Positions 764-11,866 of a stretch of DNA of 12,870 bases are shown in pieces. The position numbers and the translations under genes are program-made. This stretch comes from a virus (lineage: Duplodnaviria; Heunggongvirae; Uroviricota; Caudoviricetes). The notes beneath the pieces were generated by a model. The model searched no databases and was not told the origin of the DNA. It was given only the letters and a program-made list of their open reading frames with translations. How positions within the stretch are numbered: the stretch's first letter is position 1; every line of letters begins with the position of its first letter. The stretch lies in the IMG/VR virus record IMGVR_UViG_2585427735_000011. One strand, given 5' to 3'.

Positions 764-949
764 TCACCGCCTTGCTTCATTAAAGTAGTCGTCGTGGTTA
801 GTGTTTTCTTTTTTTTCTATTTCTTTAATCACCAAGTCATGAGCTAGGTGTCTGTCATGAGCCAGATATACTTTTGAAAAACAACCCTGTTCTTCTAGAT
901 CACGAATCCATTCGAATGCTACATCAGCTCTTTTGTATGGAGTCAGCAT
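764..949 (-). pseudogene. N-terminal fragment of a protein-kinase-like gene, truncated by the IS1 insertion
   Basis: Minus-strand ORF reads MLTPYKRADVAFEWIRDLEEQGCFSKVYLAHDRHLAHDLVIKEI..., resembling a Ser/Thr kinase glycine loop (G-x-F-x-K-V) followed about 20 residues later by a VxIK lysine motif. Native sequence stops at the IS1 boundary (768/769); the final two residues and the stop codon are IS1-derived. The rest of the gene would lie beyond IS1, outside the window. Confidence 0.45.
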
Positions 950-5754: not shown

Positions 5755-7281
5755 ATGAAAAAAGCCATAGCATATATGCGATTTTCATCACCAGGTCAGA
5801 TGTCTGGCGACTCATTAAACCGACAGAGAAGACTTATTGCTGAATGGTTAAAGGTAAATAGTGATTATTATCTTGATACCATAACATATGAAGATTTAGG
5901 ATTAAGTGCATTCAAAGGAAAGCATGCACAATCAGGAGCTTTTTCGGAATTTTTAGATGCTATAGAGCATGGTTATATATTGCCAGGAACTACATTGTTA
6001 GTTGAAAGTCTGGACAGACTTTCAAGAGAAAAAGTCGGTGAAGCGATTGAACGTCTGAAATTGATTTTGAATCACGGTATTGATGTTATAACTCTTTGCG
6101 ACAATACAGTCTATAATATTGACTCTTTGAATGAGCCATATTCATTAATAAAAGCCATACTTATAGCACAAAGGGCAAATGAAGAAAGCGAGATAAAGTC
6201 AAGTCGGGTTAAATTATCATGGAAGAAAAAACGGCAGGATGCACTGGAATCAGGTACGATTATGACGGCGTCTTGTCCGAGATGGCTCTCCTTAGATGAC
6301 AAAAGAACGGCTTTTGTTCCAGACCCCGACAGGGTGAAAACTATTGAGCTAATTTTTAAACTCAGGATGGAAAGGCGCTCATTGAATGCAATAGCCAAGT
6401 ATTTAAATGATCATGCTGTAAAGAATTTCTCAGGAAAAGAAAGTGCATGGGGACCTTCTGTAATTGAAAAATTATTAGCGAATAAAGCTCTGATAGGTAT
6501 ATGCGTACCTTCATATCGTGCAAGAGGTAAAGGAATAAGTGAAATCGCTGGCTATTATCCCAGAGTCATATCAGATGATTTGTTTTACGCTGTACAGGAA
6601 ATTCGGTTGGCACCTTTTGGTATTAGCAATAGTAGCAAAAATCCTATGTTGATAAATCTACTTCGAACAGTTATGAAGTGCGAGGCTTGTGGTAATACCA
6701 TGATTGTTCATGCGGTATCTGGAAGTTTGCATGGCTATTATGTTTGTCCGATGAGAAGACTGCATCGATGTGACAGGCCATCAATAAAGAGAGATTTGGT
6801 TGATTATAATATCATTAATGAGTTGCTTTTTAATTGTAGTAAAATCCAACCAGTTGAAAACAAGAAAGATGCTAATGAAACTTTAGAGTTGAAAATTATT
6901 GAGCTCCAGATGAAAATTAATAATTTAATTGCTGCATTATCTGTTGCGCCTGAAGTTACCGCTATAGCAGAAAAAATCAGAGTATTAGATAAGGAATTAC
7001 GAAGGGCTTCTGTATCATTAAAAACTTTGAAGAGTAAAGCGGTGAGTTCACTTGGTGATTTTCATGCTATTGACTTAACCAGTAAAAATGGGCGAGAGCT
7101 ATGTCGTACACTTGCCTATAAAACATTCGAAAAAATCATAATCAATACAGATAATAAAACCTGTGATATCTATTTTATGAATGGCATTGTTTTTAAACAC
7201 TATCCTTTAATGAAAACAATATCCGCCCAGCAGGCGATAAGTACTCTCAAATATATGGTTGATGGTGAGGTTTATTTTTGA
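5755..7281 (+). CDS. ybcK: Large serine recombinase (DLP12 YbcK-like)
   Basis: 508 aa; N-terminal resolvase catalytic motif AYMRFSSPGQ (Y-x-R-x-S-x-x-x-Q); Cys-rich zinc-ribbon-like segment CEACGNT...YYVCPMRRLHRCD; C-terminal coiled-coil-like region. AGGTG RBS before ATG 5755. AT-rich relative to the neighbouring replication genes. Confidence 0.85.
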   Translation: MKKAIAYMRFSSPGQMSGDSLNRQRRLIAEWLKVNSDYYLDTITYEDLGLSAFKGKHAQSGAFSEFLDAIEHGYILPGTTLLVESLDRLSREKVGEAIERLKLILNHGIDVITLCDNTVYNIDSLNEPYSLIKAILIAQRANEESEIKSSRVKLSWKKKRQDALESGTIMTASCPRWLSLDDKRTAFVPDPDRVKTIELIFKLRMERRSLNAIAKYLNDHAVKNFSGKESAWGPSVIEKLLANKALIGICVPSYRARGKGISEIAGYYPRVISDDLFYAVQEIRLAPFGISNSSKNPMLINLLRTVMKCEACGNTMIVHAVSGSLHGYYVCPMRRLHRCDRPSIKRDLVDYNIINELLFNCSKIQPVENKKDANETLELKIIELQMKINNLIAALSVAPEVTAIAEKIRVLDKELRRASVSLKTLKSKAVSSLGDFHAIDLTSKNGRELCRTLAYKTFEKIIINTDNKTCDIYFMNGIVFKHYPLMKTISAQQAISTLKYMVDGEVYF

Positions 7282-7289
7282 GTAATAAT

Positions 7290-7312
7290 CACTTTTTCAA
7301 CCGTGCTATAAT
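7290..7312 (+). promoter_or_regulatory. Candidate sigma70 promoter with extended -10 (TGcTATAAT) immediately after the ybcK stop
   Basis: TGCTATAAT at 7304-7312 matches the extended -10 consensus TGnTATAAT; no convincing -35. Would start a rightward transcript near 7320. Confidence 0.3.
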
Positions 7313-7392
7313 AAGAAAGTTAGGTAAGTACAATAAAATTATCTATCCTGAACGAAGCGTCCTGAGCTATGGTTTTACTATAGAGACTGCCA

Positions 7393-7716
7393 ATGGATGC
7401 TGGCGTTCTCGTTCTAGCAGTTCAACAATACCCAATCACAAAACAATTCACTGATAACGAACTTTGCACACTCGCCTGGTTATGGCGAGCAGGGAATGTG
7501 ATGTTAATTACCTACCAGAACGTTACTCCTCTTCTTCAGGTTGCGGAGCATCGTGAAGCTGGTCGCTTCACTTCTATCGAGCAAGAATATCCCCAGATAC
7601 TCAATAAGGCACAGGCAATCCTTGCCAGAGAAACGGCACATGTAAAATTCCGGCCGTGGCAGGATGATAAGTGGAGTCGAGTTTTGCCGCATTTACGTTC
7701 GGATCGATTACAGTAG
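7393..7716 (+). CDS. Hypothetical protein (107 aa); coding status uncertain
   Basis: ORF MDAGVLVLAVQQYPITKQFTDNELCTLAWLWRAGN...; weak RBS; overlapped by two minus-strand ORFs of similar length. No family recognised. Confidence 0.3.
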   Translation: MDAGVLVLAVQQYPITKQFTDNELCTLAWLWRAGNVMLITYQNVTPLLQVAEHREAGRFTSIEQEYPQILNKAQAILARETAHVKFRPWQDDKWSRVLPHLRSDRLQ

Positions 7717-8177
7717 ATTCCAATTAACAATGAGAAACACATAGCCACCCCGTGGTATTGAAACCATATAATGTTGGATTTGAAAACAGATCTTTTTCCA
7801 TGTATTAATAATTACATCCCCGCGAGTGATTCAAAAAGGAGGGCCCAATTTTGTCCGAGTTTTTGTATTCCCCCGCATGCCGCTGCGGAGCACTACATCT
7901 GAGTGTCTGACTAGGGGATAAAATTAGACTGGATAGTGAGAAGAAAGTGGCGTGCTAGGCTGTGCCGAGTGCTACCAGTACACCCTGGGGGGGTGCAGCT
8001 TTCGCCGAGACTGTAGTGGGTATCGGTTAATGCACGAAAAACCGAGAGGTCAGACAACCAATTTGCCGTAGGATTGTTTCCGGTGCGATACCGGTGTACT
8101 AACTGAAAGCAATGCGAAAAAGCATAAACTCGGTCCTTCAGTCGCCCTACACACTATTTACTAAGAAGGGCTAAAGC
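7717..8177. other. 461-bp ORF-free, relatively GC-rich, stem-rich stretch: candidate structured ncRNA or long 5' leader of the downstream ORF
   Basis: No ORF of 60 aa or more on either strand; by hand scan, + strand stop codons occur in all three frames at intervals of at most about 48 codons. Local stems include CACCC-tgggg-GGGTG (7981-7995), CCGGT-gcgat-ACCGG (8080-8094) and long-range complementarity AGTACACC (7977-7984) / GGTGTACT (8093-8100). Not matched to any RNA family I know. Confidence 0.3.
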
Positions 8178-8534
8178 ATGGATACAATTATCACATGGAT
8201 GGGAGATCGTCTGTTGGGGTGGATAACAAACAAATCCGATCTGCGGCAGAGGGCAATCACTGGATTAACTCCTGCGATTTATTCAACAATTTTATATACT
8301 GAAAAATTAAAACGTGGTGAGTCTAATAACCCAAACGAAGAAGAAAAACTTTATAGGCTTTGGTATGAAGCGTCTTCCCAAGTCGTAGACTTTGATCGAG
8401 AGCTGGCTAAAAGATGTTTAGATAAATCAGAATATTGGCTTCATTCTGAATTATATAGCCCTGAGAAAGTTGGAGAGCTAAACATTTCTTTGGTTGGTAT
8501 GAAGGCAACGCTTGAAGGAATAAAGCACAATTAA
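8178..8534 (+). CDS. Hypothetical protein (118 aa), AT-rich orphan ORF
   Basis: MDTIITWMGDRLLGWITNKSDLRQRAITGL...; AAGGG 7 nt upstream of the ATG; no signal peptide or TM segment evident; no family recognised. Confidence 0.5.
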   Translation: MDTIITWMGDRLLGWITNKSDLRQRAITGLTPAIYSTILYTEKLKRGESNNPNEEEKLYRLWYEASSQVVDFDRELAKRCLDKSEYWLHSELYSPEKVGELNISLVGMKATLEGIKHN

Positions 8535-8721
8535 AACCTTTGATTTGCGATAATCAACTCGCCATAATCATGTCATCGGAGCCTGAACAACTCCGGTGAC
8601 TTCTGCGCTAAACGGGGACGTTTATGCGCACACACAATCCAAACTCTCTTCTCCCTCCACAGATGCAGAAATGCACCTGCGATATATTGTATCCAGCGTT
8701 TGACCTCTGCGGAGGTGAAGC

Positions 8722-9177
8722 GTGAATCTCCCACAAGATGGCATCAAATTACATCGCGGTAACTTCACCGCTATCGGTCGGCAGATCCAGCCTTATCTGG
8801 AGGAGGGCAAATGCTTTCGCATGGTGCTTAAACCGTGGCGTGAGAAACGCAGTCTTTCCCAGAATGCACTCAGCCACATGTGGTACAGCGAAATCAGTGA
8901 ATACCTCATCAGCAGCGGTAAAACGTTCGCTACTCCAGCTTGGGTAAAAGATGCTCTCAAACACACATATCTCGGTTATGAAACCAAAGACCTGGTTGAT
9001 GTCGTAACCGGTGATATCACCACTATCCAGTCGTTACGCCATACCTCCGATCTTGATACCGGAGAGATGTATGTCTTCCTGTGTAAGGTTGAAGCCTGGG
9101 CGGTGAATATTGGCTGCCACCTGACTATTCCGCAGAGCTGCGAGTTCCAGCTGCTCCGCGACAAGCAGGAGGCGTAA
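8722..9177 (+). CDS. ybcN: YbcN-like protein (DLP12 prophage protein, reported DNA base-flipping activity)
   Basis: 151 aa, GTG start, [45 protein letters not shown]... matches E. coli YbcN as I recall it. Confidence 0.8.
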
Positions 9178-10783: not shown

Positions 10784-11866
10784 TTAGAACTGGTAAACCA
10801 TACCTACAGCAACGATATCATCGGTAGCAACGCCAGATGCTTTCGTGAAATCGCTCTTATCAATCAGGTTGATTTTGTAATCAACAAAAGTGGACATATT
10901 TTTGTTGAAGTAATAGGTTGCACCTACATCAATATATTCAACCAGGTCCTGATCACCCCACGCACCCAAGTCTTTTCCTTTAGATTGCAGGTAAGCAACG
11001 GACGGACGCAGACCGAAGTCGAACTGATATTGTGCAACTACTTCGAAGTTTTGTGCTTTGTTGGCAATATGGTTATTACCAAAAACAGTCATGTTCTGGG
11101 TTTCAGAATAGGTGGTAGCCAGATAGATGTTGTTCGCATCATATTTCAGACCAGCTGCCCATACTTCAGCATTTTGACCAGATGCATTCAGGCTGTTGTT
11201 ACCGTAGATAACCTGATTATTAGTGCGGTCAGATTTAGCATAGGTTGCACCTACACCGAATCCTTCATACTCATAAGTAGTGGAGAAACCGAAACCATCA
11301 CCATTAGCTTCAGTTACGTCAGTGCGGTCATTTTTACCCTGATACTGAGCAGCAAAGTTCAGACCATCAACCAGACCAAAGAAGTCATTGTTACGATAAG
11401 TTGCAACACCTGTGGTGCGACCAGTCATGAATACATCTGTTTGGGTCCAGGTATCGCCACCGAATTCTGGCAGAACGTCGGTCCATGCACCAATATCGTA
11501 TGCTACACCGTAGTTACGGCCATAATCGATGGAGCCGTAGTCACCGAATTTCAGGCCAGCGAAGGCAAGACGGGTTTTATCTTTGGAGGAACCTTGAGAT
11601 TCAGCGCGGTTGCCTTTGAATTCATATTCCCACTGACCGAAACCAGTCAGTTGATCGTTGATTTGGGTTTCACCTTTGAAGCCAAGACGGGCATAAGTAG
11701 TATCACCATCATCTGCATCATTAGAGGAGAAGTAGTGCTTAGCATTAACTTTCCCGTACAGATCCAGCTTGTTACTGTCTTTATTATAAATTTCAGCTGC
11801 CTGAGCAGACATCGCCATCAGTACTGATGCAGCTACAGCAGAAATTGCCACTGTTAATTTTTTCAT
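10784..11866 (-). CDS. nmpC: Outer-membrane general porin of the OmpC/OmpF family (NmpC / Lc-type), apparently intact
   Basis: 360 aa; signal peptide [29 protein letters not shown]; beta-barrel porin composition (Y/G/N/D-rich repeats); C-terminal aromatic ...VGMVYQF. Reverse-oriented between Q and the holin, as in DLP12. Confidence 0.9.

Follow-up and report, generated by a model that had tools for sequence, protein, structure and literature searches.

What fills the variable slot between ybcK and ybcN in this phage DNA, and which part of the filling is conserved, are the questions raised by this locus. Positions 7282-8721 of the window (the whole stretch of 12,870 nucleotides that was analysed) form a 1440-bp interval that a sequence-only reading had interpreted as swapped, moron-like cargo between conserved phage genes, possibly for defence or exclusion. 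Comparison with other genomes bears out the variable slot: the cargo at the ybcK...ybcN or ren...ybcN position varies from genome to genome, with ybcL-ybcM in K-12, an alpha/beta hydrolase in Lambda_4C10, and a PD-lambda-1 defence gene (annotated as such by the depositor) together with Rha in PhiR26_1. The K-12 gene order on which the reading relied (ybcK-ybcL-ybcM-ylcH-ybcN) agrees with the K-12 annotation. Its conserved flanks are equally real, with 84% identity on one side (7200-7564 against the post-ybcK region of Lambda_4C10) and 91-92% on the other (8536-8800 against the ylcH/ybcN upstream region of many phages). Because a ylcH-like 33-aa ORF is retained, the swapped cargo proper spans approximately 7565-8535. 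Of 5426 complete E. coli genomes, 95 carry the full 1440-bp interval at 99.7-99.8% identity; it is kept in many prophages, where it is poorly annotated rather than made up of syntenic, well-annotated genes. A moron sits between genes that in relatives are neighbours or enclose other cargo, as K-12, Lambda_4C10 and PhiR26_1 illustrate here, and it has its own promoter and terminator. In the slot, the -35/-10 pair is backed by comparison and uncalled by a consensus scan, and the terminator is present in relatives and absent in the window.

The slot content has four parts: an antirepressor remnant, a structured RNA gene, a 118-aa protein and the ylcH/ybcN upstream region (Table 1). The RNA gene had been missed in the sequence-only reading, and it is the RNA, not the ORFs, that is the conserved core of the insert. 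Both longer ORFs lie exactly where that reading placed them, the stretch between them (7717-8177) is free of any ORF of at least 50 aa, and the 118-aa ORF is AT-rich as described, with a GC content of 0.36-0.40 compared to ~0.50 in ybcN. Two further descriptions need qualification. The content is not unrecognised throughout, because the 107-aa ORF has a Pfam domain (P22_AR_C) and the last ~185 bp are an ordinary conserved ylcH/ybcN leader. The word "structured" is justified by covariation among relatives, but not by single-sequence folding, which is uninformative (z = -0.9).

Table 1. Features of the slot between ybcK and ybcN (window positions; +, strand as presented).
Feature	Position	Strand	Basis or remark
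Candidate extended -10 promoter element TGCTATAAT	7304-7312	+	Downstream of ybcK, upstream of antirepressor remnant; read from sequence
107-aa ORF, C-terminal domain of P22-type antirepressor (Ant/Rha)	7393-7716	+	Pfam, PHROG, nucleotide identity
Promoter-like region of RNA gene	7780-7809	+	-35 TTGAAA 7780-7785; spacer 17-18 nt; -10 TATTAA/ATTAAT 7803-7809
Structured non-coding RNA gene, ~330 nt, conserved core of insert	7816-8146	+	Covariation-supported fold
5' domain of RNA	7816-7919	+	Closed by helix AUCCCC/GGGGAU; near-invariant sequence; alignment columns 1-104
19-codon TTG-initiated candidate small ORF in 5' domain	7851-7910	+	Behind Shine-Dalgarno-like AAAGGAGG
GUCUGAC, one arm of candidate inter-domain pairing	7905-7911	+	Partner GUCAGAC 8049-8055
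3' domain of RNA	7927-8143	+	Closed by long-range helix GA(C/U)UGG/CCAGUC; helices 6-18
GUCAGAC, other arm of candidate inter-domain pairing	8049-8055	+	Partner of 7905-7911; overlaps conserved hairpin GGUCAGACAACC
118-aa AT-rich ORF, uncharacterised family	8178-8534	+	Starts 32 nt after RNA, no terminator between
Segment of 118-aa ORF between two GGTATGAAG repeats	8371-8493	+	Deleted in sister E. coli lineages (BLAST against L006, L010, L012)
ybcN leader, conserved, not cargo	8536-8721	+	91-92% identical to PhiR26_1 and Lambda_4C10
Promoter-like site TTGATT-17-CATAAT in ybcN leader	8540-8568	+	Promoter scan
ylcH-like 33-aa ORF	8624-8725	+	RefSeq CDS in KSC207; ylcH in K-12

The slot edges are made of known phage material. 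Immediately downstream of ybcK, the candidate extended -10 proposed earlier is a perfect one; Lambda_4C10 and K-12 have TGCTATGGT at the same position, so that the element is specific to the window's lineage, and a consensus scan calls no promoter there because it lacks a -35. The 107-aa ORF matches Pfam P22_AR_C (PF10548) over residues 15-85 (E 1.1e-15, above the cut-off), is named a P22AR C-terminal domain protein in RefSeq, and matches only the C-terminal parts of PHROG Ant families 245 and 377, aligning to positions 245-318 of 319 and 116-207 of 213 of the two profiles. It shares 86% nucleotide identity with the 3' half of the PhiR26_1 Rha gene. P22-type Ant/Rha antirepressors thus share with it the P22_AR_C domain and the alignment to the Rha 3' half, but they have an entire N-terminal half that is missing from the ORF by comparison with both the PHROG profiles and PhiR26_1 Rha. 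The ORF is probably a gene remnant, a dead antirepressor fragment that lies outside the RNA-cargo module. At the other edge, the ybcN leader corresponds to the -35/-10 and orf33 annotated in phage 82 (record X92588).

Between these edges lies a two-domain RNA fold on the + strand, demonstrated by covariation among 22 divergent copies. RNAalifold gives a consensus of 92 pairs for this alignment, in which 97.6% of cells are paired compared to 32-46% in slid controls, and pairing persists in copies with identities as low as 68%. Two-sided (compensatory) changes occur at 24 pairs (137 cells). None of 500 shuffles reached the observed values on four of five measures, and 5 of 500 did so for the fifth, further pair types. 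The strand is fixed by 238 G-U cells, and the alifold energy is -76.9 for the plus strand versus -51.4 for the minus strand. The single-sequence fold is no more stable than those of shuffled sequences.

Most compensatory changes fall within the two multi-helix subdomains of the 3' domain. At columns 130/186, for instance, 11 copies have AU and another 11 have GC; at columns 138/156, 11 have AU and 10 have CG; and five pair types occur at columns 196/205. The 5' domain, which exposes AAAGGAGG, is too invariant in sequence to be testable by covariation. A pairing between the domains is a weak candidate: its 7 pairs are 99.4% paired versus 14-44% in slid controls, with one compensatory change (C-G to U-A) in one lineage (L091) that occurs again in another (L127), but both sides are nearly invariant, which makes the evidence weak. 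A search for base-pairing targets of the RNA within the window gave two 12-nt complementarities, where ~0.5 are expected by chance; one is to ybcN, at a site that is not kept in the Klebsiella homologue, and both were rejected.

No known RNA family accounts for this fold. Rfam 15 gives no match in the whole window at gathering thresholds and, at E<=10 over 7250-8750, only two chance-level matches, both outside the RNA. ARAGORN finds no tRNA or tmRNA in the window, Tandem Repeats Finder (minimum score 30) finds no tandem repeats in 7250-8750, and RefSeq leaves the RNA unannotated. Searches of the literature on the slot, on nin-region RNAs and on the sequence itself found no description of it. 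Neither Pas sRNAs nor the Gifsy-1 RtcR determinant, both of which were looked into, is related to it. The element is a previously undescribed structured RNA gene.

The gene ends coincide with the fold. A TTGAA(A/T)-N17-T(T/A)TAAT-N6-ATCCCC arrangement is kept in ~10 divergent lineages of the alignment while the spacer sequence varies; the consensus scanner calls no promoter at this site because its -10 lacks A2 or T6. The RNA would start at 7816, 6-7 nt past the -10. Homology between E. coli and Klebsiella copies begins at the -35 and stops where the fold ends; the genes to either side are unrelated. A strong intrinsic terminator follows the RNA in approximately one quarter of 95 loci, where it lies between RNA and ORF in the lineages with cargo types C6 and C11 and also follows a cargo-less copy. 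It starts 8-12 nt after the closed helix, was located by script in all of these lineages, and in one of them (L064) has a 7-bp stem and 8 U according to a terminator tool. An intrinsic terminator is absent between RNA and ORF in the window and in all 64 loci with the 118-aa cargo, so the RNA here could be merely a 5' UTR. Inspection of the terminator sequences reveals no alternative pairing with the conserved fold, and alifold analysis of the RNA 3' end and ORF start in seven lineages reveals no conserved structure that masks the ribosome site.

Small ORFs lie within the RNA. The 19-codon candidate is found in all 22 copies. In the L006 lineage its codon 13 is a stop, and in L071 and L091 the frame shifts after codon 10; judged on these sequences, coding is doubtful, although the Shine-Dalgarno-like site and small ORF make a coding or ribosome-related role of the 5' domain possible. 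A 32-aa hydrophobic ORF on the minus strand was rejected as a type I toxin, since it has stops in three lineages, including the window, and overlaps covarying helices.

The RNA is rare and its position is fixed. Among complete E. coli genomes, 159 of 5426 (3%) carry it, as do 4 of 50,697 phage records and ~100 viral or metagenome contigs. Searches of one-genome-per-species representatives with two patterns gave zero matches or chance matches in unrelated taxa, so that the element is absent from reference genomes, and PLSDB plasmids gave no match. Owing to this rarity, the alignment samples a fairly shallow tree. It moves between lambda-like phages of gut bacteria, with copies from E. coli, Klebsiella, Enterobacter, Citrobacter and Obesumbacterium. 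The RNA always lies between the replication genes and the ninB/ybcN block of divergent lambdoid phages from several Enterobacterales genera, with genes other than an antirepressor as upstream neighbours in other lineages. The copy in Klebsiella phage Kp4856-1 is 77.5% identical to that in the window, and its flanks are unrelated.

What follows the RNA is interchangeable. A small ORF on the same strand always begins ~35-60 nt after it (~125 nt in the sole cargo-less copy, L054), so that little if any space remains for a promoter of its own. The 95 loci include 64 with the 118-aa family, 14 with a 2-TM protein, 8 with a HEPN-motif protein, 5 with a 95-aa protein, 2 with a PIN-like protein, and 1 in which NinB follows directly. 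Five unrelated protein families therefore follow one RNA family, and they are shuffled relative to RNA subtype: L094 and L118, for example, have near-identical RNAs followed by different cargo. Each cargo family also exists without the RNA at lower identity, and cargo homologues at ~50% identity lack it. RNA and cargo are separable. PADLOC-DB 2.0 has no match at E<=1 for the 107-aa ORF, the 118-aa ORF or four alternative cargo proteins, and sequence searches with the alternative cargo proteins against Pfam, PHROGs and PDB gave no match. Some of the cargo in other lineages looks toxin-like from motifs and predicted structures. The PIN-like cargo C44 has D7, E40, D123 and D140 invariant in 14 homologues, and the top Foldseek matches of its model (pLDDT 69.7) are almost all PIN domains at E 0.14-1, without a Pfam match; the HEPN-motif cargo has an RxxxxH motif without a family match.

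The 118-aa protein in the window belongs to PHROG 12412 (function unknown), has no match in Pfam, PADLOC or NCBIfam, and receives no assignment from PDB by sequence or by profile. Among 5.8 billion proteins only 20 clusters match it; a profile search with the family gives 352 representatives, and in one distant relative the 118-aa domain is fused to a TIR domain. The protein is predicted to be a four-helix bundle: an AlphaFold2 model has four helices at pLDDT 80.6, and Foldseek against PDB gives no match below E 0.19, with resemblance to a generic four-helix bundle only. All homologues with at least 69% identity have the RNA directly upstream; a homologue at 50% identity does not. A 123-bp deletion breaks the ORF in approximately one third of the E. 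coli carriers, where the RNA is intact and its changes preserve pairing. In the sister lineages L006, L010 and L012, loss of the segment between the repeats leaves a 66-aa product beside an intact RNA with 96-98% identity.

On balance, these observations make it probable, by no great measure, that the swapped cargo forms a mobile accessory module of two parts, whose conserved half is an undescribed structured RNA gene. A sigma-70-type promoter would fire at 7816 and make the RNA in the lysogen, and the RNA itself would be the moron product. The downstream ORF would be reached only by read-through from the RNA promoter or by antiterminated early phage transcripts, and the RNA gene would thus double as an expression platform that sets the amount of cargo protein. 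Because the terminator is missing in the window's lineage, the RNA there would form a long 5' part of the 118-aa protein mRNA. The mature RNA may bind a protein or another RNA in trans, as its invariant single-stranded blocks and complex junctions suggest. Given the location in a defence/moron hotspot, the arena would most likely be phage-phage or phage-host conflict. Morons of the HK97/HK022 type resemble this arrangement in being inserted between conserved early-right operon genes with a promoter-like site, in having their own terminator (matched in approximately one quarter of the RNA loci, namely C6, C11 and the cargo-less copy), and in the atypical composition of their cargo and its replacement by alternative cargo in sister phages. 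They differ in that their promoter-terminator unit encodes a protein, whereas here it encodes a large folded RNA with the protein ORF outside the terminator, and in having the terminator that the window lacks.

Other readings can be set against this module. The RNA could be a cis-acting sensor or leader, riboswitch- or attenuator-like, that by binding a ligand, protein or stalled ribosome controls passage of the terminator or the translation start, and so gates a harmful effector until a trigger such as phage infection. We consider this unlikely, although the succession of promoter, large conserved fold, intrinsic terminator and ORF with its own Shine-Dalgarno is the classic leader layout, little or no room remains for another promoter, a conserved Shine-Dalgarno site and short ORF lie in the 5' domain, and toxin-like cargo elsewhere (PIN-like, RxxxxH, 2-TM) has no adjacent protein antitoxin. 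A gating RNA would be expected to pair alternatively with the terminator, or to hide the ribosome site in terminator-less lineages, and neither is seen by inspection or as conserved structure; the terminator instead lies 8-12 nt past the closed helix, which is how an ordinary RNA gene ends. Moreover, 330 nt is large for a leader, one copy is cargo-less, many copies keep the RNA beside a broken ORF, and neither the PIN nor the HEPN assignment reaches significance (E>=0.14; no family match). Less likely again is a combined view in which the RNA serves RNA-gated abortive-infection cassettes as their shared sensor or gatekeeper, or is an RNA-only decoy with which a system of the host or of a rival phage is disarmed. 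One conserved RNA, with no dedicated partner protein, would in the first case detect infection, perhaps via a phage factor, altered transcription/termination, or ribosome stalling on the small ORF, and would license expression or activity of whichever toxic effector is plugged in (PIN-like, HEPN-like, membrane or four-helix). An antitoxin role has little to recommend it. In type III toxin-antitoxin systems (ToxIN, CptIN, TenpIN), which have links to phage defence and reside on mobile elements, the order of promoter, non-coding RNA, terminator and protein gene is alike, and a prophage locus in a defence hotspot would suit an RNA that neutralises the downstream protein until loss of the unstable RNA during infection frees the toxin. 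Those RNAs, however, are tandem repeats cut by their own toxin and are specifically co-inherited with it, whereas the slot has a single-copy 330-nt multi-helix RNA without a repeat array that is shuffled before five unrelated, interchangeable proteins. Every cargo family is found without the RNA at lower identity, and the RNA is retained in loci that have lost or lack the ORF, which makes this reading highly improbable.

Known phage RNAs suggest a further role. HK022 put, P1/P7 c4, P4 CI RNA and P22 sar are made from their own or early promoters and act on transcription or antirepressor expression, and the slot RNA adjoins an antirepressor remnant; they are all shorter than ~100 nt and have no sequence or Rfam similarity to it. 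HK022 put is a ~70-nt RNA with two stem-loops that makes RNA polymerase terminator-resistant in cis, and put RNAs are not known outside lambdoid phages. A put-like processive antiterminator that lets polymerase read through the next and the nin-region terminators would fit a lambdoid element situated immediately between a promoter and a terminator, at the place of tR2 in lambda. At about 70 nt, put RNAs are ~5 times shorter than the slot RNA, and putL and putR follow pL and pR, unlike this element; if driven by a lysogen-active promoter, it would cause expression of Q and the lysis genes. With no put-like match in Rfam (which may hold no put model), we regard antitermination as improbable. We give the same low credence to a small protein as the functional product, with the RNA as its mRNA or as a dual-function RNA. 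In favour of the 19-codon TTG ORF, nearly all copies retain the Shine-Dalgarno-like sequence and the TTG, and replacements within the first 10 codons are all conservative (S/T, E/Q, Y/N). Yet the frame is stopped at codon 13 in one lineage and shifted after codon 10 in two, L071 has a weakened Shine-Dalgarno site, non-synonymous outnumber synonymous changes by ~10 to 6 (a hand count from the alignment), and so small an ORF cannot explain 220 nt of covarying 3' structure. That there is no functional RNA, and that the conservation of a decayed coding sequence or DNA-level site reflects recent spread, is barely credible. The element is indeed rare, many copies are near-identical, and the single-sequence fold is unremarkable, but copies down to 68% identity keep 97.6% of pairs (slid controls 32-46%), 24 positions are changed on both sides, the G-U pattern is strand-specific, there are indels, no reading frame is conserved, and promoter and terminator lie exactly at the ends of the conserved block.

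The module with an RNA gene as its conserved half therefore remains our preferred reading, and its nearest parallels among large RNAs are ROOL and GOLLD. Like the slot RNA, these are big, intricate, covariation-supported RNAs of unknown function that occur mainly in phages and prophages. ROOL and GOLLD are about 580 and 800 nt long and occur mostly in Firmicutes and relatives, often near tRNAs. The slot RNA, which has no Rfam match to either, differs in its length of ~330 nt, its restriction to Enterobacterales lambdoid phages, and its tie to a downstream cargo ORF. Should it be expressed as predicted, the few large structured RNAs known from phages gain a new class. Searches of prophage cargo slots usually look for proteins, and the conserved, selected element here is a large folded RNA, which protein-centred annotation misses or covers with spurious small ORFs. 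Its fixed position before interchangeable, partly toxin-like genes offers a handle on the control of prophage accessory and defence genes without a protein regulator. Unlike ROOL and GOLLD, the RNA resides in tractable E. coli and Klebsiella lambdoid phages, including isolates, so its function is directly testable. The isolated phages Turner and IdasGreatGrand also carry the 1440-bp interval; viable phages thus harbour the module.

The window, a lambdoid prophage similar to DLP12, carries in order IS1, a cI/cro/cII-like immunity region, O, P, a ren-like gene, emrE, ybcK and the variable slot, and then ybcN, ninE, ybcO, rusA, ylcG, quuD, an intact ompC-like porin and essD. The sequence-only reading had proposed swapped, moron-like cargo between ybcK and ybcN. 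All slot features that it described lie where it placed them in the window sequence, and the order that it gave for K-12 (ybcK-ybcL-ybcM-ylcH-ybcN) agrees with the K-12 gene order. The slot exists and its content varies: at this position K-12 has ybcL-ybcM, Lambda_4C10 has an alpha/beta hydrolase, and PhiR26_1 has PD-lambda-1 plus Rha. BLAST boundaries against sister phages confine insert-specific DNA to ~7700-8535. The interval recurs at 99.7-99.8% identity in 95 of 5426 complete E. coli genomes; among isolated phages, Turner has it at 99% identity and IdasGreatGrand at 97% identity across 91% of the interval. RefSeq annotation of the slot consists of a "P22AR C-terminal domain-containing protein" and two hypothetical proteins, with nothing inside 7717-8177. 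The ren-to-ybcN region of PhiR26_1 (L004, 2190-5858) carries a gene that its depositors named PD-lambda-1, together with a full-length Rha antirepressor and a hypothetical protein of 169 aa; this equivalent region shows that the slot position serves for defence cargo.

Coordinates of features in the window
Feature	Position	Strand	Remarks
IS1	16-713	minus	position of the insA/insB ORFs; IS1 and the kinase remnant together occupy the 1-950 region
Ser/Thr-kinase-like remnant	764-949		61-aa N-terminal part
153-aa ORF	943-1404	minus	hypothetical
ybcK	5755-7281
Shared post-ybcK region	7200-7564		common to Lambda_4C10 (BLAST)
107-aa ORF	7393-7716
Rha gene match	7406-7698		3' half of PhiR26_1 gene (BLAST)
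Conserved upstream block	7730-7780		overlaps -35
Promoter-like -35	7780-7785	+
Promoter-like -10	7803-7809	+
RNA 5' domain	7816-7919	+	closing helix AUCCCC/GGGGAU
RNA 3' domain	7927-8143	+	closed by long-range six-pair helix
118-aa ORF	8178-8534
123-bp deletion in relatives	8371-8493		between two GGTATGAAG repeats
ylcH/ybcN leader	8536-8800		widespread (BLAST); promoter signals and orf33 annotated in phage 82 record
ybcN	8722-9177
ompC/nmpC-like porin gene	10784-11866	minus	intact, 360 aa

The ORF-free stretch, previously counted as unrecognised content, is on comparative evidence an RNA gene. A distant-mode search matched window 7790-8144 at 77.5% identity to Klebsiella phage Kp4856-1, in which the flanking genes are unrelated and a hairpin and U run directly follow the conserved block. 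Pattern scans with three conserved blocks gathered relatives from ~100 viral and metagenome contigs, which represent ~33 distinct cores and ~10 clearly divergent lineages with identity down to 68%, and homologues of the cargo proteins led to further copies in Obesumbacterium, Enterobacter and Citrobacter. RNAalifold folds 22 representatives into 92 pairs in 18 helices. Standard pairs fill 97.6% of cells in these copies, compared to 32-46% after shifting partners by 1-3 columns, and two-sided changes occur at 24 pairs (137 cells). None of 500 column shuffles matched the observed values on four of five measures; the remaining measure, further pair types, was reached by five. The view that there is no functional RNA here is contradicted by this covariation. 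The RNA is assigned to the plus strand because 238 G-U cells would become mismatches on the opposite strand and because the alifold energy is -76.9 for plus versus -51.4 for minus. Copies share no conserved reading frame, and a small protein as the product is a weakly supported alternative. No tRNA or tmRNA was found, and none of 4227 Rfam families matches the RNA, even at E<=10. With good comparative support, the RNA appears to lie outside every described RNA family and to be a new structured RNA class, one open to easy experimental access; no description of it was found in the searchable literature. It is rare, being present as a single unannotated copy in 159 of 5426 E. coli genomes; 4 of 50,697 phage records carry it, and it is absent from PLSDB plasmids and species-representative genomes.

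The 5' domain is nearly invariant in sequence and exposes AAAGGAGG, while compensatory changes fall mostly in the two multi-helix subdomains of the 3' domain. The RNA also contains the invariant blocks GAGAGGUCAGACAACCAAUUUGCC and GAAAGCAAUGCGAAAAAGCAUAAACUCGG, and its invariant unpaired blocks and junctions argue for a specific partner. A possible seven-pair contact between domains, GUCUGAC (7905-7911) with GUCAGAC (8049-8055), is 99.4% kept with one compensatory event, in two related copies, and is a lead rather than a result. Conserved segment 7927-7938 (GACUGGAUAGUG) is perfectly complementary over 12 nt to the ybcN coding region at 9021-9032; this match is probably due to chance, since ~0.5 such complementarities are expected and the ybcN site is not conserved in the Klebsiella homologue. 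A type I toxin antisense to the 3' domain was considered and rejected: the 32-codon hydrophobic ORF (MLFRIAFGWL...), on the minus strand at RNA positions 212-310 in most relatives (e.g., loci L065 and L094), is stop-broken in the window and two other lineages. Small hypothetical ORFs called in Turner (L002, 5226-5357 and 5407-5526) and, in P0009, a version of the 118-aa protein extended at its N terminus span the RNA gene and are probably annotation artefacts.

Upstream of the RNA, otherwise unrelated lineages keep TTGAA(A/T), a 17-nt spacer that varies in sequence between lineages, T(T/A)TAAT, six variable bases and an invariant ATCCCC, a pattern whose conservation marks it as a promoter signature. 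A simple promoter scanner makes no call at this site, where the -10 lacks a canonical A2 or T6, so we only infer the RNA start at 7816. The conserved block (A)CCATAT(G/A)TTGTAT(A/G)GTTGAA, which lies upstream of and overlaps the -35 in the window and its relatives, contains TATAAT or TATAGT-like hexamers and could be an operator or second promoter. In each of the 95 loci whose sequence extends far enough, an ORF follows the RNA on the same strand. The gap of ~35-60 nt (~125 nt in the cargo-less copy) leaves little or no space for a further promoter. Cargo comprises the 118-aa family (C17, 64 loci), a 178-aa protein with two membrane helices (C6, 14 loci), a 176-aa protein (C11, 8 loci), a 95-aa protein (C33, 5 loci) and a 177-aa PIN-like protein (C44, 2 loci); at one locus NinB follows directly. 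A strong intrinsic terminator stands 8-12 nt past the last helix in all C6 and C11 copies and in the single cargo-less copy, and none follows the RNA ahead of 118-aa, 95-aa or PIN-like cargo. C44 (L071, L102) has invariant D7/E40/D123/D140, and its top fold matches are PIN domains, none significant. C11 (L003, L096, L127) carries RLRHNLLH, an HEPN-like RxxxxH motif that is the sole basis for the idea of an HEPN protein. Both lack a neighbouring protein antitoxin gene.

Cargo and RNA subtype are shuffled against each other. Members of every cargo family are preceded by the RNA as far down as ~64-69% protein identity, but not at ~50%. In about one third of E. coli carriers, including sister prophages L006, L010 and L012, the 123-bp deletion shortens the 118-aa ORF to 66 aa, a product that public databases list as a separate protein family; the RNA upstream is intact, with pairing-preserving substitutions. 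RNA and cargo are thus separable modules, of which the RNA is constant.

The best-supported interpretation, drawn from these sequence comparisons, is that the RNA gene itself would be the accessory, moron-like unit of the slot. The element behaves like a moron, and its hotspot is occupied in other genomes by a named defence gene. The moron-slot proposal is partly supported, with an RNA gene in place of unrecognised content. Apart from antiterminated early transcription, the RNA promoter would be the only evident route by which the downstream ORF is expressed, and terminator loss in the window lineage would make the RNA the 5' part of the 118-aa protein mRNA. A trans-acting RNA, with the expression platform as a side effect, ranks first among possible functions because the terminator abuts the closed fold and because the RNA is also kept where cargo is absent. 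A cis-sensor or leader stays in play through toxin-like cargo that comes without antitoxins. A type III-like antitoxin is unlikely because cargo is interchangeable and repeats are lacking, with no tandem repeats found in the slot region. A put-like antiterminator is a further, improbable candidate.

The 107-aa ORF had been called dubious; as sequence it is not, with a P22_AR_C domain (E 1e-15), yet it is just a fragment, its alignment falling on the C-terminal ends of antirepressor profiles. The 118-aa ORF matches no Pfam, PADLOC or NCBIfam model. Only 20 relatives, counted as 90% clusters, turn up among 5.8 billion proteins, and every one is from Enterobacterales. AlphaFold2 predicts a four-helix bundle (pLDDT 80.6), for which the best Foldseek matches in the PDB are designed helical bundles (E 0.19), giving no assignment. 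A profile search of 1.8 billion representatives places the domain in 352 proteins of 120-135 aa, a family with no Pfam entry. In the 309-aa protein P0083 from the representative library, a distant relative of the domain occurs as a fusion with a TIR domain (TIR_2, E 4e-18), a hint that this domain is used in immune-type proteins. A 42%-identity relative lies in the early-left region of an unrelated prophage.

Elsewhere in the window, IS1 interrupts a Ser/Thr-kinase-like gene adjoining the cI-like repressor. Only the N-terminal remnant persists here, and the copy in strain KSC207 is full length but frameshifted; this may be a decayed Stk-type exclusion gene. The 153-aa ORF between remnant and repressor has no Pfam match, and its sole match is a weak one to the PADLOC membrane-HEPN Cas-VI-B accessory model (E 0.015). 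The porin gene is intact in the window, and the K-12 DLP12 copy is split by IS5.
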